A DNA stretch of 56,698 nucleotides from Nemertoderma westbladi (Eukaryota > Animalia > Xenacoelomorpha), in NCBI GenBank assembly GCA_032718475.1, contig JAUCBJ010008008.1:1-56698 (forward strand), written 5' to 3'. Of the stretch, positions 10,311 through 56,166 are shown piece by piece. The position numbers were made by a program, and so were the translations under genes. Each line of letters starts with the position of its first letter. Within the stretch, counting starts at the first letter, position 1. Under the pieces are notes generated by a model. That model was not told the origin of the DNA, did no database searches, and saw only the letters and a program-made list of their open reading frames with translations.

Positions 10311-10459
10311 CCTTAATCCAAAATCCAAATTTAATGCTGAAATTCCTGAAAAAAGTATTGAACAGTGAACCAAAATAGAAAGTATTGAACGGTAAGCTTA
10401 ACTTCAGTAATACACATTTACCGTATATAATAATTGTGTTTCATAAAATCATATGACAG

Positions 10460-28722: not shown

Positions 28723-29534
28723 AATTTGTTTCACATAGAAATGGAAACGCATGGTCTCAATTATAAACGACAACAACATACAAATAATATATTTTCGATG
28801 TATATACCCGATACAGGAGGGGGAAACTAGACCCAAATACCATCTCAACGAATTAATATTATTACGTCTCAATGTTAAATTACCTATTTAAGGAAAGGAG
28901 CAGGTTATAGTGGCGCGATATTCCAGCCAAAACAATAAACGAAATTCAGTAGAAAAGGTCAAAAAATTTAATATTTGGGAGTAAGTAATCAGCTGTTATT
29001 TGCGTCGATTTTTCCCTGGAGAGAGATACATTTTTGATTGCGTCGAAAGTCCCCCCCCCCCCCCCCCCCCATCTTCAATACCCTGGGGATGCATTGCCCC
29101 AGCCTCTACAACACTGCACTTCAACAGCCAAGTGAATGACAAATTCATTTCATTATCACAAATAGTGCATCTTAACACTAGCTTACGGTTCATGAAAGTG
29201 AATGGTTGAGGTTGACTTACAATTTTCCTCTCACTGATCCATCGAGCAAGACAATTCTAAATGAAATATTAGCTACAGGTTAAACTACCTACGAATGAAC
29301 TACATCAACAGAAGGTGTATTGTAAAGTTCTTTCCACTGCCAAACCTGTAAAATTATTCAGTATGTTAGTATTTTGATGTAGGAAGCAATAATAAAGATA
29401 TCAACAACCTGCTGGTAAATGATCTCACAAGACAATAATTGTGGTGGATGTGTGTTGTTAGGTCCACTTGTTCTAACATTATTTATAAGTAATCTTACAG
29501 AATATTATATCCATTTATATAAATATATTTACAG

Positions 29535-34886: not shown

Positions 34887-35482
34887 AATTACTAATTAAT
34901 CGATTATTACCAATAAAACGTATTAACTGAAAATTGTTACAAATTTTTTATCTATAGTTGAACGATTCAAGAATGCAGTGTACAGATTATAATAATACCT
35001 ACATATTGTCAGGCCGATAGAAATTCACCCACCAATATTATCTTACGTTTTATTCTAGAATTATTTCTATAATTATATTCTAGTATTTTATAACGTAAGT
35101 AATAAACAATAGAAAACTATGTACTCTAGTAGACTTTAAACGATGCCCAATAGCTACTTTGTACTTTATATAGAATACTCTGATACTAGCTATTATAATT
35201 ATTATGAGCCTGTTACCAATTACAGTACTAGCTAGTATCTAACTACTATACACCATGACCCGTAATATAGTGTCATTTTTTGACCCCCCCCCCAAAAAAA
35301 AAAAAAATTTCTACAAATCTTTATCATAATGCTTGAAATTTGAAACACAACTAGTTCAACTCACCGTGGTTGTTACCATGAAGCCGGAATTTTCGATTTC
35401 GCCTTTAAATTTTATTTATAAGCGTTTTAAAAAAGTGTCTTTTGCGAAATCGCACCCTCTGTATCATTGCCATTCTTCACTT

Positions 35483-36427
35483 ATTATTGTGGTTGACTAT
35501 GTTCTACGCATGTCCTTAGATCATCATAATGATGATGGGGTGATGATAACTCCACCTACTGGCTCCAGAAGTCGAGGAAATCCTGCCAAGTACCTAACTG
35601 ATCTAGACTTTGCTGATGACTTAGGAGTACTCTCAGAATCATTAGAGGGAGCCCAACGGCTCCTCAGCTCATTAGAACATGCTGCTTCTAGTGTTGGTCT
35701 TTTTATTAACTCCAGAAAGACCAAAATTTTGACAGTTAACTTTGAAAGTCCTCAACAAGTCTCTGATCGGATGAGCATAATCTCAAAGGATGGTATGCTT
35801 GAGCATGTGGACGGCTTCTGTTACCTGGGATCATGGATCCGGAAGTCAGGTGAGGACCTTCGAATACGTAAGGGAAAGGCATGGGCAGCCTTGAATAGGC
35901 TTTCCAGGATTTGGAAGTCACCGAGAATTAATCGGAAACTTAAGGTCCGATTATTTAGAGCAGCAGTAGTTCCAGTACTCCTCTACGGGAGTCCATGTTG
36001 GGCTCTAACTGCTGAGGACACCAAATCTCTGGATCGCACATTCACAAAAATGCTACGCCGGGTTCATTGTGTCAAGTACAATGCACACAGCTCCAACCAG
36101 ACACTATATAACATTGGAGGTGTCTCATTGGTTCCCCCAAGCTTGACACTAGAACAAAATCGCCTCCGCTTTGCAGGACATTGCTTTCGCCGTGAGGACC
36201 AGCCAGTGCATAATCTTGTACTTTGGCAGCCTCATGGAGTGAATAAGCATGGTGGACAGCCCATGACTTTCTTGAGACGCATCTTAAAGGACACTGGCCT
36301 TGAAGATGCGGATGATCTAGCAAATGTCATGGGTGATAGGGAGTTGTGGCGGTGCAATTTTGTTGACAAGCCGGCACAGCATTCTTAAAAATGCAGCTGC
36401 AATGCAGCATGCCGATCCCTACTACTA
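35483..36427 (+). mobile_element. 5'-truncated RTE LINE with 12-bp TSD
   Basis: LDFADDL, FCYLGS, KVRLFRAAVVPVLLYGS..W, RLRFAGHCFR; (CTA)n tail; TSD cattcttcactt at 35471-35482 and 36428-36439. Confidence 0.93.
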
Positions 36428-36769
36428 CATTCTTCACTTTAGTCGTAATTTTTTCACATCAATAGAAAGCTTGTGTTTTAAGGATTCCAAATATGTAACA
36501 ATGTCTGAATTTCGTTGAGAAACAGCTGAGAAATAGGCATTCAAAGATTGCAAGAATTATAATTCACTGCAGGCCATTTATTCTATTTAATAACGTCACC
36601 TTCAAGGCAGAACCCCCTAAGTCGATTTTTGTAGTTCTGAGATAATCGATAAAAACTGTTTATTTTTTAGAGAGATGCCTCAGTTTACTTGTTATTGTGT
36701 TTTTTGATAACTAAATATATATAGAATTCATATAATTAAACTTTCAATTTGATTTAGAATTACCTTTGA

Positions 36770-36960: not shown

Positions 36961-37677
36961 TAATAGCCAAGGCGTATCGTACGTCCTTTATAATTTAGTG
37001 CGTAGTGCGAACGTAATACATGTGCGCATTTGTTATTAGCTAATACGTGCTATCTAACATGTCAACTAGCACATGATCAGGTGTTAGTATTACCTGTAAA
37101 CGCAATAATACCAAATAATCACATACAATATAGCTAACACACTTGCGCACATGTTGGAAATTTTTGAATTCAAAATCAAAGGGCTCCATAAGTTTTTGAT
37201 ATTTTGGTATTAATTGCTTCTAAAATAAGTACGGGACTGTAGTTAGAATCATGTATCAATACAAATTGAACAAAATGTAGCCAAATGCAGAACTATAAGA
37301 ACAAAATTTATATTCAAGAAAGCGGAACTCTAAGTACAAAATATAGCCATGGGTGGTACTCTACAGTAAGAACAAAGTCTAGCTACAGGGTTACAGCTAC
37401 GTTAAAGTAAAGTTCACTTACAGTACGTCATGACGAATAGTTAAAGACCTGTTTTTTCTACAGTACGTGTCAACATTTTGAGCAACTCTATCAGCAACTT
37501 AGTAAGCATTTCAGGTTGCGATCAAGTTGCTCTATGTAAACGCGAACTTTGTTGCTGTTAAAGATGCCTCATATAACGGAGACTAAAAGTTAATGTTGCT
37601 CAAATTAAGTTGCTAGTTGCTGACCAAATTGTCCAAAACGTCCGGCAACCTAGAGTAACTTATAGCAACTTGGACAA

Positions 37678-38280
37678 AAACATTAAATGAGGGATAGATA
37701 TTTATCAGCGCCACAAACATTAAATGAGGGATAGATATTTATCAGCGCCACAAACATTAATGTGGGACAAACATTAATCAGGGTGACAAACATTAATGTG
37801 GGACATAAACATTGATGTAGGACACAAACATTAATGTGGGACATAAACATTAATGAGGACACAAACATTAATGAGGGACACAAACATTAATGAGGGACAC
37901 AAACATTAATGAGGGACACAAATATTAATGAGGGACACAAACATTAATGAGCGACACAAACATTAATGAGGGACACAAACAATAAACGAGGGACAGATAT
38001 CAATCAAGGGCACAAACATTAATGAGGGACACAAACATTAATGAGGGACACTAACATTAATGAGGTACACAAACATTAATGAGGTTCACAAACATTAATG
38101 AGGGACACAAACATTAATGAGGTACACAAACATTAATGAGGGACACAAACATTAATGAGGTACACAAACATTACTGAGGGACACAAACATTAATGAGATA
38201 CACAAACATTAATGAGGGACACAAACAATAAATCGAGGGACAGATATCAATCAAGGGCACAAACATTAATCATGGGCACT
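37678..38280. repeat. 19-bp minisatellite (inverted copies at ~38870-38945)
   Basis: Unit caaacattaatgagggaca. Confidence 0.92.
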
Positions 38281-39534
38281 ATCGCCCTTCGCACTTAGTA
38301 TGATTCCTGTTACCACCCATACACATACAATATATTACAGTATTACAATTCTCATTACTCTCAAGCAATAAAATAACAACAATAAATAATAACATATTAA
38401 TCTGACCAAACCAATAAACTACGTTATTGCCAATTGAAGGAAAGGATCAGGTTGCAGAGATGGTTTTTCTAACCAAAACAATAAACGATGTTGTTACTAA
38501 AAAGGGAAGGAGTAGGAGTAAAAAATGAACATGAGGGGGAGACAGGAATGGGGGAGGGGGGGGGGGGGGAGGGGGTAACATGAATGGTGGTGGTAGGAGG
38601 TAAATTGAAAATATGGGGGTATACCAGCCGGGGGGGGGGGGGGGGGGTAGCAGAAAACAGGCAGCTGAACAACGTAACCGAACGTTGCTTTCAATTAATT
38701 TCCATCTAATTAGGAAGATGGAATGTATACAAAACGGCGGTACTTTGATCGATGCTCACGTTCCCATGGTAGTATTTTTTCCAGTTAATCACTTAATATC
38801 TAATCGTCTGATGGCAAGCATCACCATCGCTCATATTAATATCCATTGGCAACTATGGACCCCTGCCCTATTAATGTTTTGTGTCCCTCATTAATGTTTG
38901 CGTCCCTCAATAATGTTTGTGTCCCTAATTAATATTTGTGTCCTGGCCGCAATACAAACCAGTATATAAATGATAAATTACGGGGTTTTGCCAGGCTATT
39001 GTTTCTGATTTAAGGGGTTTTACAGGTTGTTATTTCTGATTTAAGGGGTTTTGCCAGGTGGACTGAATTTCATATACTTGAATTTACGGTGTTTTGCAAG
39101 CCAATTATTGACTTGGGGGGTTCTGCCTCGAAGTGGGCATAAGTTACGGGGAACTGTCTTTGGCTTATAACTCAAAAATGGCTGGTAGAAAAGCTTCGGG
39201 GTTCTGCCAGACGAAAAAGCCGATATCGAATTACCCAAAAAGTCAAAAACATGAAAATCGAAAAAAATCGACTTAGGGGGTTCTGCCTTGAAGGTGACGA
39301 TAAATACACAATATTCTGGAACAATTTGTTTATGTATGATTAGCTAGGCAATATAGATATTGTATAGGCATACCGCTGTTGCCAACCAACTCATAAAATA
39401 AATATCACGTTCTAGAATTTTGTGTATTTATTAAATAGAATAAATGGCTTGCAGCGAACAATAATTCTTGCAATCTTGGAACGCCTATTTCTCAGCTGTT
39501 TCTCAATGAAATTCAGATATTGCTACATATTTGG

Positions 39535-40628
39535 TGTACGCGCTTTTGAAGACCTTTAGCAGTTTAACCTGCCAAAATTTATATGTCTTTTGGTTTATAA
39601 ATAGACTTTAGAAATTGACAAATATTTAATACCAATAAACACAACATTAGCAGAAGCCAGCCTAGTGCGCGTCCATTCACCCGCTGGATATACCCGGGAG
39701 ACTGGATTCTGAGGGCTTAGATTGTTATTGCAGTGTAAGCTTACTGTATTATTCGATTGATCGTTAATAAATAATTTCTGACCAATATTATTCACTTTCG
39801 GGAAATATTAACAGTTCCTTTAGGACGTGGCGCTCTATCTAGGTAAACAGAGATATGACTTATACTAAACACAACGGTAAGTCGGTAAGGCTTATGATTC
39901 ACGTATGAGGCGCATTCTTTAGGAAATGCTTAGTTATCAGCCACAATCATGCACACTACCGGTAACGCACAATACTGCTCACTAATTTGCCGACCGTCAA
40001 TGAATTTTATCATATATAAAGAGAACAGCAACTGACTCATGTAGTGCTTATCAAATAGCATTAAATTCACTACAAACCACAATAATATAAGTCGCAATCG
40101 CTATATGTAACCCGTCTCTCTAACCTGTAGTGTATCAAGAAAATTGGGAAATTTGGGTTCTTTATAGATGTTCTCCAAATAATATTTAACCAAATGATAC
40201 AAAATATGACAACAGTAAATAGCAGTATAATAATGTATGTTGAACCGATAATGTAAGACTGAACTGGACTGTTAAGACTGATAACAGTTATACGCTCTAT
40301 AATCTAAGCCTAAGTAAGACTGAACACTCCTAGCATGATCTGCCAAATATCTCCACATCGACAGAAAAAATCGCTCTGATTGGCTGTTAAGCTAAACAAA
40401 GAACCATGTGTCCAATGGCCGTTTCCATGTCAGCAACCAGCTGTTAGATGTCGTAATCTGAATCATCAAGGCTAAGCTGTGCCAGGGTATTTGACGCATT
40501 GCGGGTTTTTTGCCTTACCATGTCCACCAAAGCACACATATAGAAGAATGACTTTTATGTCCGTTAAAACACCTATAACGGTACCTTGCGGGCGAGGGGG
40601 ACTGAGTATATCCGCAAAAGCTTTTACA
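39535..40628 (-). repeat. 3' LTR (1094 bp)
   Basis: Direct repeat of 53341-54436 with about 10 differences seen by eye. Confidence 0.97.
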
Positions 40629-40706
40629 CCGCTCCCAGAAAATGGGATTCAAGTTTATAAATATACAAAAATCACAGTTTCTAATATATGTAAATACTCT
40701 AAACAG

Positions 40707-43700
40707 TTAGTCTTTCTTGCGCGGACGGCGTTTACGCAGTTTTTTAAAGCTAGCCAGAGTCTTTTTCTCTTTGGGGCGAGCCACTTTACAAGGAGGGCTA
40801 TAACTCCTTGGTGAAGGGTGCAATATGATTGCATCAGAGGGTGTAGGATTATGGTCGGTGTATCCGCCAGTCGAAGTACCGGGTTGATTGACATCAACGT
40901 CGGGGGAGAGGGGTCTAACGGCTTTGAGAGCTCGTTTTAAGACAGCCGCTCTTGCGGGTCCTTTACGAGTGGTCTGAACGAGAGCCGTGGGTGGACCATA
41001 GGCAGTCAGAAACCTCCTGGGTTTAATGGTTCTTTCCAACTCGCGTTCGCGGGCTCGGTATTCGTAAGGCCGTCGATATACTTCCTGTAACTCGGGGTGT
41101 GAGTTAACAAATAAGTCTCCATAGTCCGGATCCTGACGGATATAATTGATTAAGTTATAGGAATGAAGGTCGCTAGGATTAACACTCCTAAGAAATTTGC
41201 GTACGAACTTGGTTGAAATACATTCTCCGACGCGCTTCAGTAGTTCGTAACTCGATATGCGTGATTTCTGTTCGACAGAAGCGAATAGATAAGGATGGAA
41301 CGCATAAACTCCTTCGTAAGCGCGTCCAGGATAATAGCGATGGCGCGAATCACAATGTAGATCAGCGTTCGCTTCCCAAGCTCTGATGTAACGTAGTGTG
41401 ATCATTTCATCTACGCTTTCCAAATCGTGATTAAAAGGGCAATCGAAACTGGCGTGTCCCTTTAGTTGACAATGGTGACATTGAGTCATAAATTGAGGGC
41501 AAACCGCAAAAATATGCAAGTTATTGAGTCTGCAATATGCGCAATAAATTTCCATCGTCGGTTGTTCTTGGAAATAGGAACAGCGGACGTTTGTGTCCAT
41601 GGGCGTAACATGGTCTCTCGATGCGCATAACCGACAACGTTGCCTAGAAACATAGTTGGCATGTCGATAATCGTACGCAGTGAGACACTGTGGACCTTGA
41701 TACCATTCTATGATGTAATCGTTGTCGCTGTTCCGGGGCGCGATAGGCTGAATCTCCTCAGATTCTAGACATATTGGTTCGTCTTCCAAGTGCATAGCTG
41801 AGGTGGGCGTGTCTGTCTCTTCAAGTGGACCTATTGTCTGAATTTCCACGACAGAATAACCTGTGGGGATTCGAGGTCTTTGTATAACAGAGGAGTGCAA
41901 GTTCGATATACAAATCTCTTTGAAAATGGCGAATCCAGCGCTATCCAACTTCTCTGCAGCTGAGTTTCTTAGGCTGAGCTTGGTCAAAGCGCGGTCTTTA
42001 AATTGGCTATCCACGTTGCGGAACGGGGTTAAAAATCGCCGGAAACATTCGAAGCGGATGAATTTATTATGTTCATCTAGCTTAGCGAGTTTGGTCCCAA
42101 GTATTAATGGATGGGCGCGTATAGTACGACTGCACACATCGGCTAGCCAACCGGCAAGTGCGGTGTTTTCAAAGATCGTGTATATAGCTAAGGAGGGACG
42201 GAGTGGAACACTCATGAAGCTATACACGGCGCCAGGTGCGGTCAATGGTCCATCAAAGTATAATCGAGAATAATGGTCTCCGTATACTTGTTGATAGTTA
42301 ATGGGATTTCCGACTTTGAAATTCCATCCGTATTCCTGAAAGGCAAGATGTCCGATGGAAGTTCGTTGCACCTTTGTAATGTTGCTAGACGTATTAGCAT
42401 ACATGGTGCGGAAGAAACCTCGACCTTCTGCCCAGGGAGCAATCAGCTGAGTATCAACGAAAGGGTATGGAATGTTCTCCATATTCCGAAAGTCGTTTTG
42501 GAGATCTCCATAAACAGCTGAGCCGATTTTAAGGATTCTTTCGTTGAACAACATCTCGAGTACGGGCTGGGGTAACATCGATCCATCGATACCCATGGCC
42601 GGTTTGCGTTCGGTGTCAATGACGTAACGCTGCGCGAGTTCGAATTGTCCATGTCGGAGATTCTTTTGTGTTTCGGTGAGAGTTTCAAAGGAATAATCAA
42701 TCACGTCGGAACACGCTCGAGTAAACACGTGAGTAGAACCAGCTAATCCGCGTATGTGGATCATGCGCGTAGTTCCTATTTCTCCGACCGGAACGCTACC
42801 TTCGTTATCGTAGGTGACAACTCCATACATCTCAATAATATTAAGAGTTTCATTCCACTCCTTGGTGGCGTTCTCTAGGGTCATCCCTACTGGATGCCAC
42901 AAGGTGGCGCATTGGTTAGCGTCAGGGAGATCACTATACTTCATGTGCCGAGTGGTATACGTCTCCACATTTCCATATCTTTGTATTTTCTCTTCTTCAA
43001 ATAATACATCTAGATTCCAATGGACTAATCGAGTTTTAATAAATCCATCGAGATTATAAGGAGGTTCTATATCCTTCTCGATTCGAGAAATGTTATATGG
43101 TTTTCTAAATGAGTTTACCTTTACTAACTGATCCAGATGTTTCTGCAATTGTTCGAGCTCGACAATGTCTAGAGGATTTATTAGTGGTAGAAACTTTAAA
43201 TTATGCGTCGGGTCTTCTGGTTTTACCATATAATATTGAGTCAGATTAACGTAATAAGGGTGGTCTTTAATCCCATAAAACGAGTTCTGTAAAGGTCTAG
43301 CGCGTATGTTGACATCGTGTACCATACGACGGACAAGATCCGCTCGATTGTCCGGAGGTTCAACGAGTATACCGTCAACACGAGCGGCCTCGATCGGCGG
43401 ACGCTGTAACATAGGGGCGTCAGCGATAAGATTTTGCGATCCTGTACTGATATCAACCGGTTGAGGTTGTATCGTCGCGAAGAGTTTGTCTCCGAAATGG
43501 GGAATCATCGAGGGATGACGGACGGTTTTAGAGTAGAGATCCGTCATAAGGATTTGAGCTTCAGGTTGGGCTAAAGCGGCTTCTTCTCTCTCGTCCATTT
43601 TCGTGTGTTTCTCCTCGAGTAGATTTTCTTCCGCTTGTCTCTGTAAGCGTTCATCTAAAAATTCTTGTAGAGAATACGTGCGTCCAAGCTCGATGTCCTC

Positions 43701-44960
43701 CTCGAGGTTTTGGATTTCTCTATCGAACTGTGGCAAGGCCAACTCCTTCACCGATTGGACTTGTTGTTGTAATTTACGTTTCTCTAAACAATCTTGTGTT
43801 CCCTTTCCGATTTTCTGTCGAATGGCGTCTAAAGCGTTTCTTATAACGCTCTCTTCGACTTCCGTGGCGGGTTGCATCGGGTTTAATCCTGGACGATTGT
43901 AAGGATCAAATGGCGATATGAGCTGCCCGCGTCCCAATCCGGCTAAGTAGGATGGGCGAATGTCTAACGAACCCACTACCGGAGCACCACCGATTAATTG
44001 TTCGGGTAACACTAAGTCTTTGAACAGGGAATATAGTTCGGGAGGATCAGTGATACTGTTAGGATCAAGAGTTTGAGGTCTCACTAGGGAATGAGGAGGC
44101 CTGACCGAGTATTCCGGAACTCTGATCATGGGTTTATTCAGTGATCGTTTAAGACGAGCGATCGTAGGTGGTACGTCGAACAGGTTTCGCTCGAAACTCC
44201 CGTAAGTGTAACGCGTAAAGCTGTGTTTAGCGCAACGTCTCCGCGGATGTTTATGTCTTTCAGTTTGTTGGTTGGGTCTAGGGCATTCGTCACAATAATA
44301 CCAAAGACGTACGTCCTGCAGAGGAAACGCGGGTGATCGTTCTCCAGTTTTGCAGTATTCTTCCATTTGTTCAAAACTATCCGGGATAACAGGTAGTGGA
44401 CGATCGGCGGTAAGATACATCATAGTGAAATAGAGCCGTTTGAGTTCTACCACAGGGTCATGATGTATACCTTGAGGATATCGAGTCTCTAGGTTCTGCT
44501 GACTGGCGACGTTGAGATAGGTTTCTCTCAAAAATTCTAGGTATTCGTTGAAGTCGATGCGTTTATCCGGTTCTTCAACGTTTTCTCTTTCCAGTCTATT
44601 ACGAATAGAATTTTCGTGATCTATTCTCGGTTTATCGTTACGACTCCGCTGGGTATGGTATTTAAATAGAACCATTTCCCTCTCTGTATCTACATCGTCC
44701 GTATCATGTAAATCGATAGGATGGCCGGTAGTTAAGAAGTCCATATACGTACCATTACGATTCGTATAGCGAGCGGTGAATTTTCGATAATCCAATTCAC
44801 GCGCAAGTTGCTCTTGGGACATCGGCGGTTCGATATAACGACCATCGTCCTCTGTAATGGTTGGATCGGCTTCACCGCGTATTAAGCTATCCACAAATGC
44901 TTGTAAAGGTAGAGTATATCGCTCCCTAATACCAAGATCATCTTCTATCAACTCCGTCAT
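40707..44960 (-). CDS. 1417-aa retrotransposon cargo protein: DEDDy 3'-5' exonuclease-like domain (WRN/EXD/Mut-7 type) plus CCHC zinc knuckles
   Basis: VVTYDNE (ExoI), LPQPVLEMLFNERILKIGSAVYGDL (ExoII), FVDTQ, SIGHLAFQEYG, PLRPSLAIY (ExoIII-like); CRLCASRDH, CAYCRLNNLHIFAVC, CHHCQLKGHASFDC; basic C-terminus. The ORF itself is certain; the domain call is by eye. Confidence 0.75.
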   Translation of the reverse strand: MTELIEDDLGIRERYTLPLQAFVDSLIRGEADPTITEDDGRYIEPPMSQEQLARELDYRKFTARYTNRNGTYMDFLTTGHPIDLHDTDDVDTEREMVLFKYHTQRSRNDKPRIDHENSIRNRLERENVEEPDKRIDFNEYLEFLRETYLNVASQQNLETRYPQGIHHDPVVELKRLYFTMMYLTADRPLPVIPDSFEQMEEYCKTGERSPAFPLQDVRLWYYCDECPRPNQQTERHKHPRRRCAKHSFTRYTYGSFERNLFDVPPTIARLKRSLNKPMIRVPEYSVRPPHSLVRPQTLDPNSITDPPELYSLFKDLVLPEQLIGGAPVVGSLDIRPSYLAGLGRGQLISPFDPYNRPGLNPMQPATEVEESVIRNALDAIRQKIGKGTQDCLEKRKLQQQVQSVKELALPQFDREIQNLEEDIELGRTYSLQEFLDERLQRQAEENLLEEKHTKMDEREEAALAQPEAQILMTDLYSKTVRHPSMIPHFGDKLFATIQPQPVDISTGSQNLIADAPMLQRPPIEAARVDGILVEPPDNRADLVRRMVHDVNIRARPLQNSFYGIKDHPYYVNLTQYYMVKPEDPTHNLKFLPLINPLDIVELEQLQKHLDQLVKVNSFRKPYNISRIEKDIEPPYNLDGFIKTRLVHWNLDVLFEEEKIQRYGNVETYTTRHMKYSDLPDANQCATLWHPVGMTLENATKEWNETLNIIEMYGVVTYDNEGSVPVGEIGTTRMIHIRGLAGSTHVFTRACSDVIDYSFETLTETQKNLRHGQFELAQRYVIDTERKPAMGIDGSMLPQPVLEMLFNERILKIGSAVYGDLQNDFRNMENIPYPFVDTQLIAPWAEGRGFFRTMYANTSSNITKVQRTSIGHLAFQEYGWNFKVGNPINYQQVYGDHYSRLYFDGPLTAPGAVYSFMSVPLRPSLAIYTIFENTALAGWLADVCSRTIRAHPLILGTKLAKLDEHNKFIRFECFRRFLTPFRNVDSQFKDRALTKLSLRNSAAEKLDSAGFAIFKEICISNLHSSVIQRPRIPTGYSVVEIQTIGPLEETDTPTSAMHLEDEPICLESEEIQPIAPRNSDNDYIIEWYQGPQCLTAYDYRHANYVSRQRCRLCASRDHVTPMDTNVRCSYFQEQPTMEIYCAYCRLNNLHIFAVCPQFMTQCHHCQLKGHASFDCPFNHDLESVDEMITLRYIRAWEANADLHCDSRHRYYPGRAYEGVYAFHPYLFASVEQKSRISSYELLKRVGECISTKFVRKFLRSVNPSDLHSYNLINYIRQDPDYGDLFVNSHPELQEVYRRPYEYRARERELERTIKPRRFLTAYGPPTALVQTTRKGPARAAVLKRALKAVRPLSPDVDVNQPGTSTGGYTDHNPTPSDAIILHPSPRSYSPPCKVARPKEKKTLASFKKLRKRRPRKKD

Positions 44961-46424
44961 ATCTGCTATCTGAGTTTATTAATATCAAAATGAGTTTATG
45001 TTTAGGCGAGCGGGCGTCGCTGCCTACTTCTCTTTGCCCCCGGACAGTGGGATTCTCAGCGCCGATGTACCGTCGTCGCGGTGTTTACGCCAACATGTAG
45101 CAACAGCACGACAACGATAACCGGCACAAGTCACTCCACTGTCCGTCCCAAAGGCTTGGATCCACTTAGGTTCTTTCTATAGGAGAGTTGGGCTACTTTT
45201 ACAATTGCGACTAGCTACTGTAAACATACTTTAGCAGTAACATTCACCTATAAACGCACAAATTCCACACAACTGTCACCAATTGTACACATACAGGCCA
45301 TTTGTCCGTTAGTCAGTGCCTTCCAGAATGTCACGTTATTACTGTGTATCCTTGGATACTAACAGTGTGCTATGTATTCTCTATGCTATGCAATGGGACA
45401 AGCTTTCTATTGTTCTCTTAACTTGCTTCTAATTCTAGCGTGGGTGTTGCTATGGTGACATTATGGAATGCTAGCGGTAGAATTAGGGTAATTCTCATGC
45501 ATACAGATCTGGGATGCTATTTAATAGTAATTCTTTAATTGTCAATATCCTCTTTATGCATGATTTTATTAATTTTATCGGCTATTGACTATATGTTGGA
45601 GATTCTCGCACTCTAATACACTCAATAGGATGAATCTCCGCTCCCATGATCTATTAATTAATGGAATTTTGGGAATGTTATAAATTGCACAAAATGACAA
45701 TTTATGAAATTCATTTAAAATATGAATTTAAATTTATTCCCGTGAATTTTATTATGTGATGTTAAAATTGACACAATTTTTATTCCAGAACTTGTCTGGG
45801 GACGATAACCACTGATTCTAGAGTTTGTCTTTCAAGTATATCGGTGGGTGCCGCGATATCTTAATCGACTAGAATTACAGATGGTCAAAAGGTTTAACAG
45901 ATTTATTTGCGTTTCACGCTACTGTTAGAGGGACATCACGCTACTATATGTATTATTATATATGGTATGAGAGCAATATCGCACGAAGCAATGTCAGTGT
46001 GAAGAGGCAAGTCGTTTCCAAGGTCTACCCAGAGCTTGGTTTAGCCGAGACACGAGGATCTGAACTTTGCATTCCTAATACTCTGCCTACCAATAATACT
46101 TAAGTATAGTAGGAGCTTTATTGTACTTTAATAAGTACGGACATTTCATCTTACTGTAGTCACGTATTTATAATATGATACGGACAGTAAGGAAAGAGAA
46201 AAAATAATTATTTCTCGCCGTCGCACTAAATATATATTATAAGTAATTACGTACGTAATAAACACTAATATATTGCACTAATCTACTAAATAATCACTAA
46301 AAGAACATTCTACTAAATAAAATTAAAGAAAACGATTATAATAAAATTACATAATAATACATACATAAATATAAAATAAAAACAAATATAAAATGATATA
46401 GTCACACGCCCACTCCATATGTTA

Positions 46425-49400
46425 TTACGTTATGGAGTCCCTAGATATTTGTCGGATTAGGGAAGTGGTCGTAGGAAGAGTATCTCGCTTTCCATAGTTT
46501 CCGGACAGTTTTTGGTCTCTTTCCAGTAAACATAAACGACTAGCTGGGCGATTGAGTTGTTGTGTTACTTTCTCCGCTCCCTTGGCCTGTCTAATCTCCG
46601 CCGGGGTAAGATGAGGAGGCCATTCTTCTTCTTCTTTACTTAAGAAGTCAGATCCACCTAACCAGCCTGGAGTATCTATCAGTTCTTGAGGAGTTGCTCC
46701 TCTGGAAGCGATGTCGGCTGGATTAATCGTCCCAAGGCAATGTCTCCATTGATCTACGTTGGAGTTAATATCGTCATTATCTGAGGAGTATGGTGTTCCC
46801 TCAGTTGGATCGTCTACATCACTGCTCTCCACTTCCCATTCCTTTACTTGGTATACCTGTTGTTGAGGTAATCTCTCTTTGAGAGTTCTACGGGAAGGGC
46901 CAGTGAAGTACCAACCTACTCTAGTTCTTACCGCATAGGTTTGTAGTGGCTGCGGTTGAGCAGGCCGTTTCTCCAATGTCTCGAGCGCCTCATGCGCGTT
47001 TTGGCCGATGAGTATTTGCACTCCAGGATAATCTGTCTGGAATCGAGGTATCTTAAGATGTTGGATGCTCTCATCCTCGTCCCAATTATAAAGGTCTGCT
47101 TGAGTAGTAGCGAAGTTCTTTATAGCCACCATTTTTACCGACCTTATACCTTGTGCTCCTAATTTATCCTGGGGGGTGGACAACACACCTACATAGTAGT
47201 CTGCCGTTAGGGTAGATTTCCAAACCTGCATAATTCCTGACATATTCAATTTAGTCCGGAATTTGGGTTGTCCAGCAAAGATATCTTCGGCTAGTTCTTG
47301 ATCGATGAATGTTCCTGTGCTGCCGGAGTCAAGGAGGGCGTTCACTATGTAACTTTTGTTAGGACCGTGAACTCTTACCTGCACTACAGGAAATTCTCTG
47401 ATTCCTACGTTGGAAGTTGGAGCTTTCCAAGATGGTTGTCTGGCAAAAGTAGTTGGGGGGAACTCATTGTCGGTGTCCTTTTCATAAGTAAGTGCTCGAT
47501 ACACTGAGGTATTTATTAGGTAACAGGATTCGTTGGCGTCGGAGAATTCGTCAGTATAGAATCCTTCCATCTCAGACTCTTGATCAGTGTCATTTACATC
47601 ACTGAATTGGACATGTAGTTCGGGCTCACTTACCTGACTCGGGTTGTCTCGTTCGAACTCACTGTGTAACAAGATGTGATGTTTCGCGCCACACTTTGCA
47701 CACTTTACGTCGGAGTAACAGGTTCGCCGTTGGTGTCCTGGTCTGAGGCAATTATAGCATAACCGCTTATCCCACACGACTGCACGTCTGTCTACAAGGG
47801 ATTTCTTTAGAAATTCAGCACACGCACTCAAACGGTGGGTCCCGTCGCACAGCGCACAGTTAGGTTTTATGTTACTCACTTTACCTTGGGTAACCTGATG
47901 CACTCTCGTTCTTTCTTCGGGCTTTCTTCCGTGCATTCTGTTAGGAGACTGAGGAGGGGTCTTGGCAACCTGTTCTCTCCTATCGTTGGTTCGAGCCTTG
48001 TATTTACTTACGTCTTTTGAGGTTTTGTTAACGTAGTAAAATTTGTCAGTGTCTTTCCCGCTGTCCTCTTCTTGAGAAGCTTGGCTTTCGCCGTCGTCAG
48101 TGTAACACACCGGTGTGACTCTTCTCCTAGAAACGGGTTTCTCACTTACCTTATTTTCCGATGTTTTTTCTCTGGACTGCTTGATGAGTTGTAGTTTTAC
48201 TTCACCATCTAAGAAGGACATGAGATCAGCCATGGTAGGGCTTCGTCGTTGCTGCTCATTCATATACAACACTTTCTTGTCCCAGCGTGTACATACTCCA
48301 CCCTTTGGTAAAGTAGAGACTACTGCTCCAATAACCATGGAACTCTGATATTCATGAGACTTACCTAACCAGTCCAATTGTCTACAGATCTCCTGAATCT
48401 CATCGGAAAACTCTATAATCCCGCTACTAAGGAAGTTTCGGGGGGCTACTAATTTTGCATACAAATACTTAGCTATGTTATCCTTGTTACCATACCTGAT
48501 GTTTAATGTATCCCAAACTTGTCTTAATCCTTCTGGATGTCCAATAAACTTTAACGCCATTAACTTGGGAGGTCCTTCCAAGCACTTGATGAGGAACCTA
48601 AGTTTCTCTCCGTTAGATAGTACAGAGTTCTGTATGCTGTCTTTGTAATATTCATTGAAAGGTAACCATTTCATCTCATCTCCATTGAATTTGACGATCT
48701 CTCCCACTTTGACCGCTTGGCGGGCTTCTGTTCTAGCCATCTGACGCGTAAAGCTTTCTTGGGCCATCGTGTTATTTAATATCGAATTATCGGTATATAA
48801 ATTTCTCGGGTCATTATCAGGTCTATAGGGAATATCATTAACAACAGGTTTATAATCACCCTTAATAGGGTTTGCTATAGGAGTTTCTACTTCACTAGCA
48901 GTATAGATGCGTGTAGGCTCCACACCTTGCGCATGTAATACTTCAGACCTAACAGTTTGACACAATGTTACAGGGGGTATTGGTATACCCTTTTGTATAT
49001 TGACTAATTTGTCGCGTTCTAGCGCGATACTTTGCTGCACTTCTTGCAATTCGGCCCTACCTTCCCTTACTGTTCCCTTAAGTTGGTGGACAGTCTCCTG
49101 CATCTGTCCGAGCAGGAGATTCATCCCCCGCCGTCCCTCCTCTACCCACTCGACCGCCGAAGCGGGAGTCGCCAACATTGTAGCGGGCTGACGCGGGACG
49201 ACGGGAGACAAATCTTTGATTTCTCTCTCAGCTTCCAGGACAGGGATATTCTCATGGACTGTTCTACCGGGTACAGGCAGTGTAGTACTGTGTAAAGGGA
49301 ATTTAGAGTTAAGCTCTGGAAGTACAGGGGTCTCTAGCACAGCAGTGACTTTGGGAACGACAGGCCTAATTATTTCAGGCTCATCAACTATAGTAGGGAG

Positions 49401-51062
49401 TTTTTTGACCTTAATAATTTGGTCTGTAGGTTCTATACTACTTAAGTCTGTGCTAGCTAGTTGTCTTCTAACAGCTGGGGGCAAATCAGGCAATTTGTGA
49501 CGGTGAGATGTTTTTCTACGCCTGCTTAGAAGAGATCTATTTCCTCCGCCTTCAGGATCGGTGGTTTCGCTTTCCTCCGATGATGTGTATCCCTGGCGTT
49601 TGGGAGTAGATCTTCTCATCATCTGCATGTGACTAGCAGTTAACTGTTTATTTATGTTGTCTTGCGTCTCTTGCAGATTTTCCAACTCTAGTTGGGTAGT
49701 CTCCTCAGACGCTCTCCGTTCTGCTTCTGCCACCGCTGCTTTTCTTTCTGCTTCTGCTTCTGCCGCCGTTGCCTCTCTTTTTGCTTCTGCTTCTGCCGCC
49801 TTTGCTTTTCTTTTTGCTTCTGCTTCTGCCGCCGTTGCCTTTCTTTCTGCTTCTGCTTCTGCTGCCGTTACTGCTGCTGCCTTTCGGTCCTCTATCCGTT
49901 TTTTCTTTACTTGTTCTTCTTGTACTCTAGCGAGGCGGAGTTTTTCATCAAATTTAGCTTGGTTAGCAGCTAACATTTCCGCATCGATTGAGTCCAACAC
50001 AAGCTTGGTTCCTTCACTATTGGGGCGAAGTCCAGCCAGTCGTCTCCTCAACTCTTCATCACCCAAGAAGCGTTGATAGTCTGACAGATAGATGTCTATG
50101 GCGTCTCTCGAGGGCGACTTCTCTGCTGCTGTCTCTTCGCTTTCCACTTGAGAAAGGGTGGCATCGGTTGGTTCTTCATAGGTTGGTCTCTCAGCCAGCT
50201 GGGGTTTCCACTGGGCCGTTTCGTGAACTTTGAGACCTACCCGCTGGAACCAAGTCTTGACAGCAACCTGCAGCGACGTGTCCTGTCTTCTTTTGGAAGT
50301 TTCCTCAAAGGCTGATAGGATTAGTCTAATGCGTAGGGTTCTTTCGCGTACTTGATAAAGCAGCTCTTCCTGCTCTTGAGGTCCTTGAGGTTGTCGAAAC
50401 AATTGTTCTTCCAATCGCTCTAAGGAGCCGAAGAATCCCTGCACATATCCTGCTGCCGACCTCTTCCAAACAGCTGGATCCATCCTATCTTTAGCCACTC
50501 CCATCCTGTGTATATCTTCCCAAGTAGCTTCGGACAAATCTAACGGGAGTCCGGGTCCGGGAAAGTTCCATTGTGACTCGACAATAGACATCAATTCTTC
50601 CCTGGCGTATCTCGCATAACTATCTTGGGTCGCTCGCTTACTTCTCGCCCAATCGACTTGGTGTTCCTCCACCGCAATCAATATAGTAGTTAGCACTGCG
50701 GCAGGAAGGGTGAGAAGGGGATCCGAGTAGGCTGTAGCCGCCATCTGCACTCCGCATTCGCGGGTCAGCTCTACAGTATCCGAACTACTGGAGCTATCGG
50801 ATCGCTGGGAACAAGTTTCTTGACTAGGATGTTGCTGCTGTTGGACAGCTGCTTCCTGGTTCCGTTTGACTTGGGCCCGAGTGCCGATGATAGACCTACG
50901 GTGTTGGATTAGCTTAGGGTCTGATACTACTACTGGAGGGATGACCTTTCTTTCAGTAGGAGGTGAGCTGAACTCCTTTCTTAATCGCTCCACACTCCTA
51001 TCTGTGTCACAGATGGTTGTATCGATTAGACTGTCTGACAGGTTTTGCTGGGTGTCAGACAT
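46425..51062 (-). CDS. Bel/Pao Gag-protease polyprotein (1545 aa) fused to an RNase H C-terminal remnant; RT and integrase absent
   Basis: DUF1759-like KFNGD...W..F...EKLRFL...LEG; three knuckles CALCDGTHRLSAC, CYNCLRPGHQRRTC, CAKCGAKHHILLH; protease ALLDSGS, ILIGQN, AVRTRVGW; WRHCLGTINPADIASRG...WLGGSDFL. Confidence 0.92.
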   Translation of the reverse strand: MSDTQQNLSDSLIDTTICDTDRSVERLRKEFSSPPTERKVIPPVVVSDPKLIQHRRSIIGTRAQVKRNQEAAVQQQQHPSQETCSQRSDSSSSSDTVELTRECGVQMAATAYSDPLLTLPAAVLTTILIAVEEHQVDWARSKRATQDSYARYAREELMSIVESQWNFPGPGLPLDLSEATWEDIHRMGVAKDRMDPAVWKRSAAGYVQGFFGSLERLEEQLFRQPQGPQEQEELLYQVRERTLRIRLILSAFEETSKRRQDTSLQVAVKTWFQRVGLKVHETAQWKPQLAERPTYEEPTDATLSQVESEETAAEKSPSRDAIDIYLSDYQRFLGDEELRRRLAGLRPNSEGTKLVLDSIDAEMLAANQAKFDEKLRLARVQEEQVKKKRIEDRKAAAVTAAEAEAERKATAAEAEAKRKAKAAEAEAKREATAAEAEAERKAAVAEAERRASEETTQLELENLQETQDNINKQLTASHMQMMRRSTPKRQGYTSSEESETTDPEGGGNRSLLSRRRKTSHRHKLPDLPPAVRRQLASTDLSSIEPTDQIIKVKKLPTIVDEPEIIRPVVPKVTAVLETPVLPELNSKFPLHSTTLPVPGRTVHENIPVLEAEREIKDLSPVVPRQPATMLATPASAVEWVEEGRRGMNLLLGQMQETVHQLKGTVREGRAELQEVQQSIALERDKLVNIQKGIPIPPVTLCQTVRSEVLHAQGVEPTRIYTASEVETPIANPIKGDYKPVVNDIPYRPDNDPRNLYTDNSILNNTMAQESFTRQMARTEARQAVKVGEIVKFNGDEMKWLPFNEYYKDSIQNSVLSNGEKLRFLIKCLEGPPKLMALKFIGHPEGLRQVWDTLNIRYGNKDNIAKYLYAKLVAPRNFLSSGIIEFSDEIQEICRQLDWLGKSHEYQSSMVIGAVVSTLPKGGVCTRWDKKVLYMNEQQRRSPTMADLMSFLDGEVKLQLIKQSREKTSENKVSEKPVSRRRVTPVCYTDDGESQASQEEDSGKDTDKFYYVNKTSKDVSKYKARTNDRREQVAKTPPQSPNRMHGRKPEERTRVHQVTQGKVSNIKPNCALCDGTHRLSACAEFLKKSLVDRRAVVWDKRLCYNCLRPGHQRRTCYSDVKCAKCGAKHHILLHSEFERDNPSQVSEPELHVQFSDVNDTDQESEMEGFYTDEFSDANESCYLINTSVYRALTYEKDTDNEFPPTTFARQPSWKAPTSNVGIREFPVVQVRVHGPNKSYIVNALLDSGSTGTFIDQELAEDIFAGQPKFRTKLNMSGIMQVWKSTLTADYYVGVLSTPQDKLGAQGIRSVKMVAIKNFATTQADLYNWDEDESIQHLKIPRFQTDYPGVQILIGQNAHEALETLEKRPAQPQPLQTYAVRTRVGWYFTGPSRRTLKERLPQQQVYQVKEWEVESSDVDDPTEGTPYSSDNDDINSNVDQWRHCLGTINPADIASRGATPQELIDTPGWLGGSDFLSKEEEEWPPHLTPAEIRQAKGAEKVTQQLNRPASRLCLLERDQKLSGNYGKRDTLPTTTSLIRQISRDSIT

Positions 51063-52404
51063 GTTTAGCTATACGGTTGAATGCCTACTGCTATAGTTAC
51101 AGTTAAAGCAAGTCTAGTAATTCAGTATGACCGTTAGCCTAGTACCGTTAATTTATTACAGTATATTATAATACCGGTATACACTTATAATATATATAAG
51201 TATTGTAAACTAGTTTTGTCACAGAGTACCGGTATATAATTTTAGCACAAATATATATAAATATATAATAGGCCTATCGTGAATACCGGTATGCAGCTTA
51301 CACTTATAGTATATATAAGTATAATTATGAACTAGAATTAATTACAGAATACCGGTATGATTTCAGCCCAAATTTATAGAAATAAATATAATAAGCCTAT
51401 GGTAAATACCGGTATGTCAATTATTTTAGAATAATTGAATTTCTGAATATTTTAGGGTTACTTGGTTACTTTAACTTACTTTATTACCGTTATTTAAACA
51501 GTAGTCCAACTGATATTGAGACCTAGTTGTTGTATGGCAGGCCTACTATTTATAAATCGTTTGAGTTGATTTATAATATTTATATACCCGTTTAAAATGG
51601 GTTTTGTCAATATTTGAAATAAATGTTATTATTTCTGGGGGAAGTCACTACACAGAAGCTGTGCGCTCTCAGTGAAGTGCTACTTATGGGACACTAAAAC
51701 AGATAATTCTAATTTACCTAAGTTACTTAATACTACAAATTACGTACGATACGGGTGAGATTAATTCTCTAATTAAAACATAACAAATATTACGTACGAA
51801 ATTTTTAGGGTAATTTTACAGGAAGTCTACAAACCAGCCTAACAAAGGGTTAGAATTCTGGTTATTACAACGGACAGGGTACTACGGTATTTGAAAATAA
51901 TAAGTAGTAATAAATATGTTGCGCTGTCCAGATAGGAAAAATACCACCGTCTGACGACCTATAGCCGTATCGCTATAGGTACTACGTTATGTATCACGGA
52001 GTGTTTCTACCTAGAAGTTAATTACCGCGGACTACCAGATCCAACGTGCCTATTAACCACTTTACAACACAAATATACTGCCTACACACTAATTACCTTC
52101 GGAAAGCACTGTACACTAAACCCTAAATTAGGTACAAGTACTGGTACAACAAATAATCAGTAGTTAAATATACTTGAACAGTTAAAAGAACCACGGCATC
52201 TGCTGGAGTGACCGGAGCACAAAGTCACCAGTCTTTACCTACGCCAAGCAGCCCGTGTAGTACCGGGGTTAATTTAACTATAACGGTATGTGTAACAAGC
52301 ACAATTACTGTAGGAATAAACTTGGGGACATGAATGTTGCGAATAATCGCATAAACTCTGAATAATAAATATTACGCTACCCGTACAGAATACTCAAACA
52401 AAAT

Positions 52405-52935
52405 ACAAACCAAACGCTGGCAGACTACCACCAAGCCTAAATAAACTACAGTATTGTGCAGATTCCGAAATGGTTAGTTAGTATGCGTTCTAACACGGTA
52501 GCACGACTTATTCTTTAAGAGGGGATTGACCTTACAGCTATGGCTGCCCCAACTTACTAACTGGCACTTTATCAGACAAACTCTACACACGCAGCAATCT
52601 CTTCAGACCTAATAATAGCTAGACAACAATCCAGCCTACAAAATATCTGAGTAATAACTATTACGGTACCTGAACAGACCACACAAACAAACACAGGCCA
52701 AAACGCTGGCAGAATACTGTCAAGTCTAAATAAACTACAGTATGTGCAGATTCCAAAATGGTTAGTTAGTATGCGTTCTAACACGGTAGTACGACTTATT
52801 CTTTAAGAGGGGATTGACCTTACAGCCCTGGCTGCCCTAACTTACTAACTGGCACTTTATCGGACAAACTCCACACACGCCGCAATCTCTCCAGACTCAA
52901 CAACAGTCAGACAACAGTCCAGCCTACAATTATCT
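52405..52935. repeat. ~290-bp tandem duplication in the retrotransposon 5' UTR
   Basis: aaacgctggcaga...ccagcctacaa occurs twice (~52410 and ~52700). Confidence 0.9.
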
Positions 52936-53112
52936 GAACAATCTGAGCAGACTTACACGTCTTCAGCTCAATATTAACTTACATGTAAATAAAACCGACA
53001 GAAATAAGTAAAATCTCAATAAAAAACCAGGGCGGCCGTTCCCTGATTAAGTACTAAGACCTACCGGTATACAATAATCAAAATCGAATAATACTAATGT
53101 ACTTATACTGGA

Positions 53113-53280
53113 AGTACCGGTTAGGACAGTTGGGCCTACAGACCTACAGCAGTACCGGTTCAGGCAATTAGGCCTACGGACCTACAGCAGTACCGGTTCA
53201 AGCAGTTGGGCCTACGGACCTGCAGCAGTACCGATTCTGGCAGTTGGGCCTACGGACCTACAGCAGTACCGGTTCAGGTT
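53113..53280. repeat. 38-bp tandem repeat (~4.5 copies) next to the 5' LTR
   Basis: Unit cagttgggcctacggacctacagcagtaccggttcagg. Confidence 0.9.
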
Positions 53281-53340
53281 TACCGGTCGACCGGTACTTT
53301 CAACTTTATTGCTTACTGCAATAAAGACAATAACTGTTAT

Positions 53341-54436
53341 TGTACGCGCTTTTGAAGACCTTTAGCAGTTTAACCTGCCAAAATTTATATGTATTTTGGT
53401 TTATAAATAGACTTTAGAAAATGACAAGTATTTAATACCAATAAACACAACATTAGCCGAAGCCAGCCTAGTGCGCGTCCATTCACCCGCTGGATATACC
53501 CGGGAGACTGGATTCGGATGGGGCTTAGATTGTTATTGCAGTGTAAGCTTACTGTATTATTCGATTGATCGTTAATAAATAATTTCTGACCAATATTATT
53601 CACTTTCGGGAAATATTAACAGTTCCTTTAGGACGTGGCGCTCTATCTAGGTAAACAGAGATATGACTTATACTAAACACAACGGTAAGTCGGTAAGGCT
53701 TATGATTCACGTATGAGGCGCATTCTTTAGGAAATGCTTAGTTATCAGCCACAATCATGCACACTACCGGTAACGCACAATACTGCTCACTAATTTGCCG
53801 ACCGTCAATGAATTTTATCATATATAAAGAGAACAGCAACTGACTCATGTAGTGCTTATCAAATAGCATTAAATTCACTACAAACCACAATAATATAAGT
53901 CGCAATCGCTATATGTAACCCGTCTCTCTAACCTGTAGTGTATCAAGAAAATTGGGAAATTTGGGTTCTTTATAGATGTTCTCCAAATAATATTCAACCA
54001 AATGATACAAAATATGACAACAGTAAATAGCAGTATAATAATGTATGTTGAACCGATAATGTAAGACTGAACTGGACTGTTAAAACTGATAACAGTTATA
54101 CGCTCTATAATCTAAGCCTAAGTAAGACTGAACACTCCTAGCATGATCTGCCAAATATCTCCACATCGACAGAAAAAATCGCTCTGATTGGCTGTTAAGC
54201 TAAACAAAGAACCATGTGTCCAATGGCCGTTTCCATGTCAGCAACCAGCTGTTAGATGTCGTAATCTGAATCATCAAGGCTAAGCTGTGCCAGGGTATTT
54301 GACGCATTGCGGGTTTTTTGCCTTACCATGTCCACCAAAGCACACATATAGAAGAATGACTTTTATGTCCGTTAAAACACCTATAACGGTACCTTGCGGG
54401 CGAGGGGGACTGAGTATATCCGCTAAAGCTTTTACA
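53341..54436 (-). repeat. 5' LTR (1096 bp)
   Basis: Direct repeat of 39535-40628; CCAAT and TCAGT initiator-like motifs on the - strand around 54060-54195. Confidence 0.97.
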
Positions 54437-56166
54437 TTTGGAATCCTTTCAACGCAAGCTTTCTATTGATGTGAAAAAATTACGACTAAAGTGAAGAATG
54501 GCAATGATACAGAGGGTCCGATTTCGCAAAAGACACTTTTTTAAAACGCTTATAAATAAAATTTAAAGGCGAAATCGAAAATTCAGGCTTCATGGTAACA
54601 ACCACGGTGAACTAGTTGTGTTTCAAATTTCAAACAATATGATAAAGATTTGTAGAAAAATTTGGGGGGGGGGGGTGGGTCCGTGTCATCAGAAAATGAC
54701 ACTATATTACGGGTCATGGTGTAAATGAGTTTGGACTTGAAGACACAAAATAAAGTTTTTTTCAAAACCTTTTTTGAAATATATTTAATACAGGCTTATA
54801 ACATTCTTAAATGTTACATCGTACAATATCATGCTGTGAGAAGCAGTCTTTCTGACGGGCACATTGGCACATGTAATTATACTAGAGAATCAGGAATCAG
54901 TGCACAAAACGTTTCGTTGGAATTCTTCGAAGTGGTGTCATCACGGAACGGAACGATGTTACGAAAGTAAGCGAACTTACCACTATCTAAACCTGTGTGT
55001 CTGTCGAAAATTGTTCCTTATACTTATTACCATATTTGTATTATTTTTGTCTGCACCAAACATTTTCCCACCACGAGAACTCTACCACTACCTGAAGACT
55101 ATTTATAATGTTACTTAGCAACGGAGTGTATATCTGAAAATATAAAACAATGGGAAATTTAAAAAACTAAAATAGTTGGTAGACCTATACAACGGGTTGG
55201 GGCGGCTAATCTGTTACGGCACCCAACTATCTGGCAACCTTTATACACTTGCCTAACCGAAACACGTTTTTAGCCTGACAAAATTATATAATTGTTTAAT
55301 TTGAACTACAAACCGAAAGAAAATAATTGTATCTAATTTAATTTATGTACGTAATTTGCACTCTGCCTGGCCATACAGTATATCATTTTCTTAATCGTTG
55401 TGTTTATATCTACTTATATGTCGGTATGTTTATACTTTACTTCGTTTGTCAAATAAATAATTCCAATTCCAACCCATCAATGTACTTGATATATTGGTGG
55501 TAAATTCGGATCCCATAACGCTACGACCACTATATATGCATGAGCCGATTGAGGTTAAATAGAAAATCCAGTTACCCCGGCAACCGTGCTAAACAGATGT
55601 TAAAATTTATAAAATGTTAATTTGAAGCCTAAGGAGAAGGTGTTGGGACCAGCCGAACCCCTACCCCCACTTTTTAGTAGTTCTGCATCCGAATTTGATA
55701 GTTCTATTTTGCAGTTACCATGCCAACCGCTGAAAAAATATGTTTTGACACAAAATAACTCATTTTGGACATAGACGTCGCAATAAAATATTACGAAACT
55801 GGGTATTTGTTTTCTGGACCACTAGTTGGAACTTTTAGTGAAACTAAAAACATTCCAGAAATATCTAGTTACCATGGTAACTGAAGTTTATTAAAGTCTA
55901 TATAATTCAAGTCAATATCTATATATAACTCTATTTGTATCAAAACTATATTAGATATAAACTTCGGGTTTCAGATACAGATACAGATACCATGACAACG
56001 TGGCTAAACAGATGTTCAAAATTATAAAATGATATTTTAAAGAATAAGGTTAAGCAACACTTATACACGGCACGTGTTGTATTACCTCTTGGGACCAACA
56101 CCTATCCCCACTATAGCACTTATTCTGCATGCGAATTACATTGTTCTAATTTCCAGTTTCCATGAC

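Follow-up and report, generated by a model that had tools for sequence, protein, structure and literature searches.

What does a 1417-residue, uninterrupted gene do in the envelope position of a retrotransposon in which neither reverse transcriptase nor integrase was found? The gene, here called ORF2, lies at 40707-44960 (minus strand) in a 56,698-bp stretch of the Nemertoderma westbladi genome (contig JAUCBJ010008008.1 of assembly GCA_032718475.1; the whole stretch is referred to as the window), within a complete minus-strand insertion of a Bel/Pao-type long terminal repeat (LTR) retrotransposon that spans 14.9 kb (39535-54436). It is stop-free, needs no intron, and sits between the gag-protease gene (ORF1) and the 3′ LTR on the same strand, just as described in a first-pass annotation that was made from the sequence alone and that proposed a DEDDy exonuclease joined to zinc knuckles. 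Our analyses make it very probable that ORF2 is a functional, selected accessory gene with a DEDDy fold.

ORF2 is not an envelope protein, since neither a signal peptide nor a membrane anchor was found by a crude test that used no dedicated predictor (highest 19-residue hydropathy mean, 1.21; acidic N terminus). The motifs on which the first-pass annotation relied are located at VVTYDNE 42821-42801, LP..GDL 42575-42501, FVDTQ 42461-42447, SIGHLA 42359-42342 and AIYTIFE 42188-42168, all in an RNase D-like DEDDy domain (residues ~700-945; 42126-42863, minus strand) that contains D718, E720, D819, Y927 and E931 and has two insertions relative to the family. Three Cys/His knuckles follow at residues 1109-1174 (41439-41636, minus strand; Pfam zf-CCHC_3, E=0.0007, below cut-off), and the protein ends in a basic tail resembling a nuclear localization signal (40710-40745, minus strand). 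Coiled-coil-like stretches, judged by composition only, are present as had been claimed, but the main one, rich in E, K, R and Q, precedes the nuclease domain (residues 351-470; 43551-43910, minus strand), with a second, shorter one at residues 1301-1350. Pfam and PDB-sequence comparisons assign no fold to the first ~680 residues. An extra Cys/His cluster in this N-terminal arm (residues ~220-250; 44211-44303, minus strand) has no family match.

How secure is the exonuclease assignment? Pfam gives no exonuclease match on ORF2, PF01612 included. However, comparison of ESM features for residues 690-970 returned PF01612 in 25 of 30 matches, with a best such score of 0.92, on a scale where 0.9 is attained by 4-10 of 100 shuffled proteins. 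The NCBIfam RNase D model matches residues 798-843 (E=0.001, far under its curated cut-off). We also built profiles from 40 family members taken from the 76 matches listed. ORF2 scores 14.4 bits with the profile built from 17 proteobacterial RNase D domains (200 shuffles, 5.7 or less), whereas one of 23 standalone WRN-like bacterial exonucleases fails to detect it (-2.2 bits; profile-profile comparison, 0.5-8%). When ORF2 was paired with a distant homolog, P0002, the pair-profile matched the 40 family members at 92.5% (E=4.9e-7), a value that 60 column shuffles did not approach (1.35% or less). These comparisons uphold the DEDDy fold proposed earlier and lend no support to the ancestry proposed with it, from WRN, EXD or Mut-7 specifically; the RNase D profile outscored the WRN-like one, both profiles being small and bacterial. 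No sequence-level match of ORF2 to EXD1, EXD2, Nibbler/Mut-7, WRN or Egalitarian was found.

Within the domain, D819 (ExoII) is the most secure: 69 of 72 alignment settings place it on the Asp of the family, and it also aligns with the Asp of E. coli RNase D. At ExoI, D718 and E720 fit the D-x-E pattern that is invariant in the family alignment A4, in a register that depends on settings. At ExoIII, Tyr927 is present and Glu931 stands where the family has Asp, which makes the site a D-E-D-E variant rather than canonical DEDDy. The first-pass annotation had noticed this altered acidic residue and had suggested a pseudo-nuclease. P0002 makes that suggestion less likely. This 648-aa metagenome protein (a singleton on a 9449-bp contig) is one of two proteins that passed E≤0.001 in a search of 1.84 billion representatives with ORF2 (E=9e-7). 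The two proteins are 29% identical over 171 columns and have the same domain order of nuclease, linker, three knuckles and basic tail; their knuckles align with a score of 66, reached by 0 of 1000 shuffles. P0002 aligns cleanly to all three family motifs and has an identical Tyr-x3-Glu-Asn; in all 18 pairwise settings it matches D819, Y927 and E931. Because the Glu at ExoIII is kept in a homolog this distant, we regard it as an old family trait and not as decay; the other acidic residues are also kept. As D-E-D-E sites are known in RNase H enzymes, which form another family with the same fold (PMC13492167; this and all other papers cited here except PMC8742986 are cited for the portions of their text that were available), activity of ORF2 would be plausible from its residues.

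P0002 may mark a broader family of mobile D-E-D-E exonucleases. Its top Atlas match is a Euglenozoa cluster combining PF01612 and zf-CCHC (0.86), which we treat as a lead only. The other protein that passed, P0003, was rejected as a repeat-driven match to a trypanosomatid protein. No new homolog of ORF2 emerged from a 5.8-billion-sequence set (3088, 1111 and 7989 candidates, length-limited, with P0002 itself recovered in one), nor was any homolog found in JGI metagenomes, IMG/VR, phages or PDB sequences; plasmids gave one knuckle match at E=6.

Several observations weigh against the assignment. All or nearly all of the 23 bacterial rows of alignment A4 carry Asp at the fourth site, which in ORF2 is Glu. 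The five site residues fall jointly into register in 2 of 72 settings with family members and in 7 of 270 random settings. Further, hhalign of ORF2 alone puts ExoI and ExoIII in the wrong place, and the ExoI stretch alone is not significant against P0002 (276 of 1000 shuffles). Structure prediction offers compatibility only. An unguided single-sequence AlphaFold model of the domain has a predicted local distance difference test (pLDDT) value of 29. A model guided by an alignment reaches 55 (core 70-90, insertions below 50) and superposes on the RNase D structure with Z 13.1 (root-mean-square deviation 3.8, 176 aligned) and on Nibbler (12.0), TbRND (11.8), Egalitarian (11.7), WRN (11.2) and EXD1 (11.1). 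However, because the guiding alignment was chosen with the five residues in register, these matches are circular, and because the model was built from RNase D sequences, it cannot rank EXD1, EXD2, Nibbler/Mut-7, WRN and Egalitarian, which belong to the same fold family and lie at Z 11-12. At E≤0.001, Foldseek found nothing that matched the guided model.

If the fold is that of an exonuclease, is the gene maintained? ORF2 or part of it is present in six public runs from four studies (one organism in three, another in one), among which the sample sequenced here may be included, and family coverage and variants were computed from four of these runs. In each of the four, every one of the 30 bins of 39400-52300 has coverage, from copies whose identity ranges from <90% (down to 80%) to >99%. 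Run X1 alone holds 116,445 contigs on the element, and run X3 has single contigs at depths of 5,000-14,000 beside others near 28. We infer that the element belongs to a many-copy family, depth being no copy number. Among the best-supported 40 of 157 variant sites in the nuclease domain, ranked by support and not by codon effect, 35 are synonymous, compared with an expected fraction of 0.29 (p=1e-14; rough ratio of nonsynonymous to synonymous polymorphism, 0.06). The five replacements all lie away from the five site residues, and the listing contains no gap. Among the best-supported 40 of 3158 sites of the whole element, 18 of the 22 in ORF2 are synonymous (0.34 expected, p=5e-6), as are 3 of the 12 in ORF1, most of which lie outside its conserved domains, so that neutrality of Gag is not implied. 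From the synonymous excess among family variants, we conclude that ORF2 is under purifying selection and is not a passenger. It counts against this conclusion that the variant tables cover only the best-supported sites, since deep, shared sites favour a bias towards old selected differences.

It is very improbable that ORF2 is a captured host gene carried along as a neutral passenger. The present copy is so young that chance alone could have left it intact: by rough estimates from LTR divergence, a neutral ORF of this kind would have a probability of ~0.48 of being free of stops and of ~0.14 of being free of gaps. Because that divergence is so low, the open frame of a single copy is weak evidence of selection, and the earlier argument from openness is weak on this point even as the selection that it proposed appears in the family variants. 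Against a passenger stand the synonymous excess in the nuclease domain (p~1e-14), the family-wide coverage of ORF2 in copies down to 80% identity, and the lack of any matching cellular protein in the searches of the 5.8-billion-sequence set and the 1.84 billion representatives. Evolution as a neutral single copy, which the first-pass annotation had named as grounds for dropping its proposal, is likewise contradicted by these data.

One class of family member lacks the domain. A deletion joint at 41786-44591, which removes ORF2 residues 124-1059 out of frame, occurs in 3 of 4 runs and reaches a depth of 2918 in run X5. Because this derivative has amplified, the nuclease domain is not needed in cis. 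A second internally deleted, out-of-frame ORF2 derivative (40868-43606) was seen in run X1 only.

On what might the enzyme act? The reading that we tentatively prefer, by analogy and with considerable reservation, is that the ORF2 exonuclease shortens or destroys the small-RNA guides of the host, or the precursors of these guides, easing silencing of the element. The analogy is with TbRND, the RNase D of Trypanosoma brucei, whose CCHC fingers raise RNA binding and cleavage and whose overexpression depletes guide RNAs (PMC7797062). By this scheme, the knuckles would grip single-stranded RNA and present its 3′ end to the nuclease in the way of the TbRND fingers; Glu at the fourth site would still bind metal; and the basic tail would carry the protein into the nucleus, probably the place where guides or precursors would be attacked. 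ORF2 would act in trans, which would account for amplification of the derivative without the domain, and Pol would be supplied by an autonomous partner not seen here. Three points tell against the scheme. Mature piRNAs are 2′-O-methylated, which blocks such enzymes; a trans-acting suppressor is a shared good that is hard to keep under strong selection; and the small-RNA target was chosen by analogy.

Selection would be accounted for by action in cis, as expected if ORF2 were an RNA adaptor or decoy with little or no catalytic activity, in the manner of EXD1 or Egalitarian. Such a protein would bind element RNA by means of its nuclease fold and its knuckles, and would use the coiled-coil-like arm to couple this RNA to export, transport or a safeguard against nuclear decay. 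The replacement of Asp by Glu at ExoIII, the two insertions in the domain and the ~680 N-terminal residues without an assigned fold would fit such a protein, and EXD1 and Maelstrom have been described as derivatives that bind RNA but are not active (PMC5408684). However, four acidic residues and the Tyr are kept in two proteins at 29% identity, D-E-D-E sites exist in the RNase H enzymes, a different family of the same fold (PMC13492167), and a derivative without the nuclease has amplified. We consider an adaptor unlikely, but, together with the primer trimming discussed below, it is a close rival of counter-silencing.

The anatomy of the element bears on what else ORF2 might do. The minus-strand LTRs (5′ LTR, 53341-54436, 1096 bp; 3′ LTR, 39535-40628, 1094 bp; both TG...CA) are identical at 1086 of 1094 aligned columns (99%), with 8 substitutions and one 2-bp gap, and the same 5-mer, a target-site duplication, flanks the element at 39530-39534 and 54437-54441. 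The insertion split an older repeat, of which another copy lies near 36428-36593. The insertion is recent and the family probably high-copy. A 2.3-kb leader (51063-53340, minus strand) with tandem repeats (38 bp x4.4, 288 bp x2 and 123 bp x2) precedes ORF1 (46425-51062, minus strand; 1545 aa), which contains a DUF1759 Gag domain (residues 792-920, Pfam E=3e-12), three Cys/His knuckles (residues 1069-1133) and an aspartic protease (LLDSG at residue 1243; Pfam Asp_protease_2, E=0.003). We take DUF1759 and the third knuckle to be typical of Bel/Pao. Some 50 residues past the protease, ORF1 continues into a short stub that resembles the final part of the RNase H region of Bel/Pao. Reverse transcriptase, the RNase H core and integrase were not found in the element, where Pfam matches only DUF1759 and the protease in ORF1; the first-pass annotation was thus right about a Bel/Pao element without reverse transcriptase and integrase. 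Because these are absent in this copy, the element is a non-autonomous derivative that cannot be placed by reverse transcriptase. As to loss of Pol at the level of the family, no joint or loose end among those listed (15 and 24, with 84 and 3367 more beyond the listing) coincides with the junction. An AT-rich spacer of 1464 bp (44961-46424, minus strand) with 10 AATAAA/ATTAAA hexamers and no ATG-started ORF of 100 aa separates ORF1 from ORF2 and would house a promoter or splice acceptor for ORF2. A short polypurine tract (40629-40636, minus strand; 7 of 8 purines) abuts the 3′ LTR.

How is reverse transcription of this element primed? A tRNA-type primer site is missing, with no TGG in the first 120 nt past the 5′ LTR. 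Instead, the 11 nt that abut the 5′ LTR at the primer-binding position (53330-53340, minus strand) are perfectly complementary to LTR positions 338-348, a candidate self-primer at 54089-54099 (minus strand) that is repeated in the 3′ LTR at 40281-40291 (minus strand). Both features were absent from the first-pass annotation and are new here. The complement was sought on purpose; the chance of finding one of 11 nt is ~0.1-0.2% (30 of 20,000 simulated LTRs; 10 of 12,702 internal 11-mers), and the three sites are the only exact 11-mer matches in the window. Among internal 5-1-5 palindromes, 1 of 15 has such a partner. When RNA starting at position 338 was folded, the 11-nt pair was present in both the minimum free energy and centroid structures (z=-2.5, 20 shuffles). 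Pairing beyond the 11-mer is unremarkable (rank 309 of 1000), and an extended self-priming stem is not significant. In its sequence, the arrangement resembles Tf1 self-priming: Tf1 and Tj1 self-prime through complementarity to the 5′ end of the mRNA (PMC4600332), and, as in the Tf1/sushi elements, a tRNA site is lacking and the sequence abutting the LTR complements a stretch within it, here at 11 of 11 nt (PMC4600332, PMC6317226). Unlike here, self-priming has been reported in chromoviruses and some plant copia lineages (PMC6317226). Our literature search found none in Bel/Pao, in some cases weakly, as the term "bel pao" probably misses the spelling with a slash.

Given these features, ORF2 may serve the element's own replication. 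If the element self-primes, ORF2 could trim the RNA 3′ end to the 11-bp duplex, or mature other element RNA ends, much as RNase D trims structured RNA. The missing TGG, the exact 11-nt complement and the precedent of Tf1 and Tj1 (PMC4600332) are in favor of such a role. Yet we judge it unlikely, to about the same degree as an adaptor. Pairing past the 11-mer is ordinary, and the motif, being nearly a palindrome, might instead be a recurring protein-binding site. ORF2 is not joined to Gag and shows no sign of packaging, and the transcript start relative to LTR position 338 is only assumed. The Tf1 primer, moreover, is made by the element's own RNase H. A more elaborate scheme, which we regard as rather doubtful, is that a Bel/Pao lineage gave up tRNA priming in favor of self-priming and also encodes a D-E-D-E exonuclease, tethered by knuckles, which would make the primer or destroy small-RNA guides; members without Pol would give Gag and the enzyme and a partner would give Pol, forming a two-part retroelement.

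Alternatively, ORF2 could be a DNA exonuclease that proofreads or trims the cDNA of an unusually long element. DEDDy enzymes can act on single-stranded DNA (PMC5408684), DEDDy ORFs are also found in 40-kb Terminons (PMC6431247), and the element measures 14.9 kb even without Pol, compared with a range of 4.2-10 kb given by the International Committee on Taxonomy of Viruses (ICTV) (PMC8742986). However, the knuckles are like the RNA-binding fingers of nucleocapsid and AIR2 (P0002 knuckles against HIV nucleocapsid, E=1e-4), and RNase D is the best sequence match, which together make a cDNA role improbable.

Counter-silencing by a DEDDy cargo protein would not be without precedent as an idea. DEDDy ORF3 cargo was described in 2017 in the gypsy-like Juno and Vesta LTR retrotransposons of bdelloid rotifers, and roles in RNA 3′ processing and silencing were raised at that time (PMC5408684). 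Terminons also carry DEDDy ORFs (PMC5408684, PMC6431247, PMC5718144, PMC6338049). The novelty asserted in the first-pass annotation was thus overstated, and what stands is that we found no Bel/Pao element with DEDDy cargo in the literature searched, most subscription papers, Repbase and supplements lying outside the search and one search being weak for the spelling reason given above; the word "exonuclease" does not appear in the available portions of PMC554778, PMC3118150 or PMC12440569. Like the Juno, Vesta and Terminon proteins, ORF2 is an RNase D-like DEDDy gene in the env position with no membrane helix and an altered acidic tetrad. Unlike it, those elements are not Bel/Pao, have full pol and, going by the text of the paper, carry a DEED motif, where ORF2 has D-E-D-E. 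ORF2 further differs from the Juno and Vesta genes in its 1417-aa length, three knuckles, long N-terminal arm and basic tail. Some nematode Cer elements, which belong to Bel/Pao, are also said to carry an RNase D-like domain; if they do, novelty drops further. The available portions of PMC5408684 examine variation only in the env-like and GDSL ORFs, which is mostly neutral, whereas selection is seen here.

The likeness to cellular TbRND, in which an RNase D-type exonuclease is followed by CCHC fingers (PMC7797062), may be convergent; TbRND has four fingers right after the domain, whereas ORF2 has a gap of ~160 residues, three knuckles and Glu as its fourth acid. With other Belpaoviridae, which are metazoan elements, the present one shares a DUF1759 Gag, three knuckles, a protease, TG..CA LTRs (1.1 kb, within 0.2-1.2 kb) and a short polypurine tract (~10 nt in the family); it departs from them in lacking reverse transcriptase, RNase H, integrase and an 18-nt tRNA-Arg or tRNA-Gly primer site, in its 14.9-kb length and in having an enzyme as cargo in place of env (PMC8742986). 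Self-priming in Bel/Pao, if true, would fall outside the ICTV description of the family. For the most part, protein suppressors of small-RNA silencing in animal retrotransposons are hypothetical, and DEDDy cargo has awaited a role since 2017. It is of interest, then, that the first selection signal we could find for such cargo comes from a different LTR lineage and a compact, assayable domain.

No tRNA gene was found in the window, and no Rfam match was obtained. Outside the element, a 556-aa ORF at 22450-24120 (plus strand) contains a Mutator-like transposase domain (PF20700, E=1e-55). Fragments of non-LTR reverse transcriptases lie at 18445-19755 and 35378-36388 (plus strand; RVT_1, E=2e-32 and 2e-5), with related pieces across the window. 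Two pieces with phospholipase D motifs, a weak one at 8174-8869 and one at 20683-21243 that matches PLD_C at E=1e-24 (both plus strand), probably represent exons of a host gene into which repeats have intruded. A GC-rich region at 14107-17000 (GC ~60% at 15001-17000) adjoins inverted repeats at 14107-14985; it has no Pfam match, and both of its strands carry overlapping ORFs. Tandem arrays occupy 5924-6717 (68-bp unit), 27379-28786 (43 bp) and 37672-38327 (19 bp). Because the 68-bp unit recurs near 28879 and 38426, adjoining the 43-bp and 19-bp arrays, a single repeat-bearing element family is suggested.

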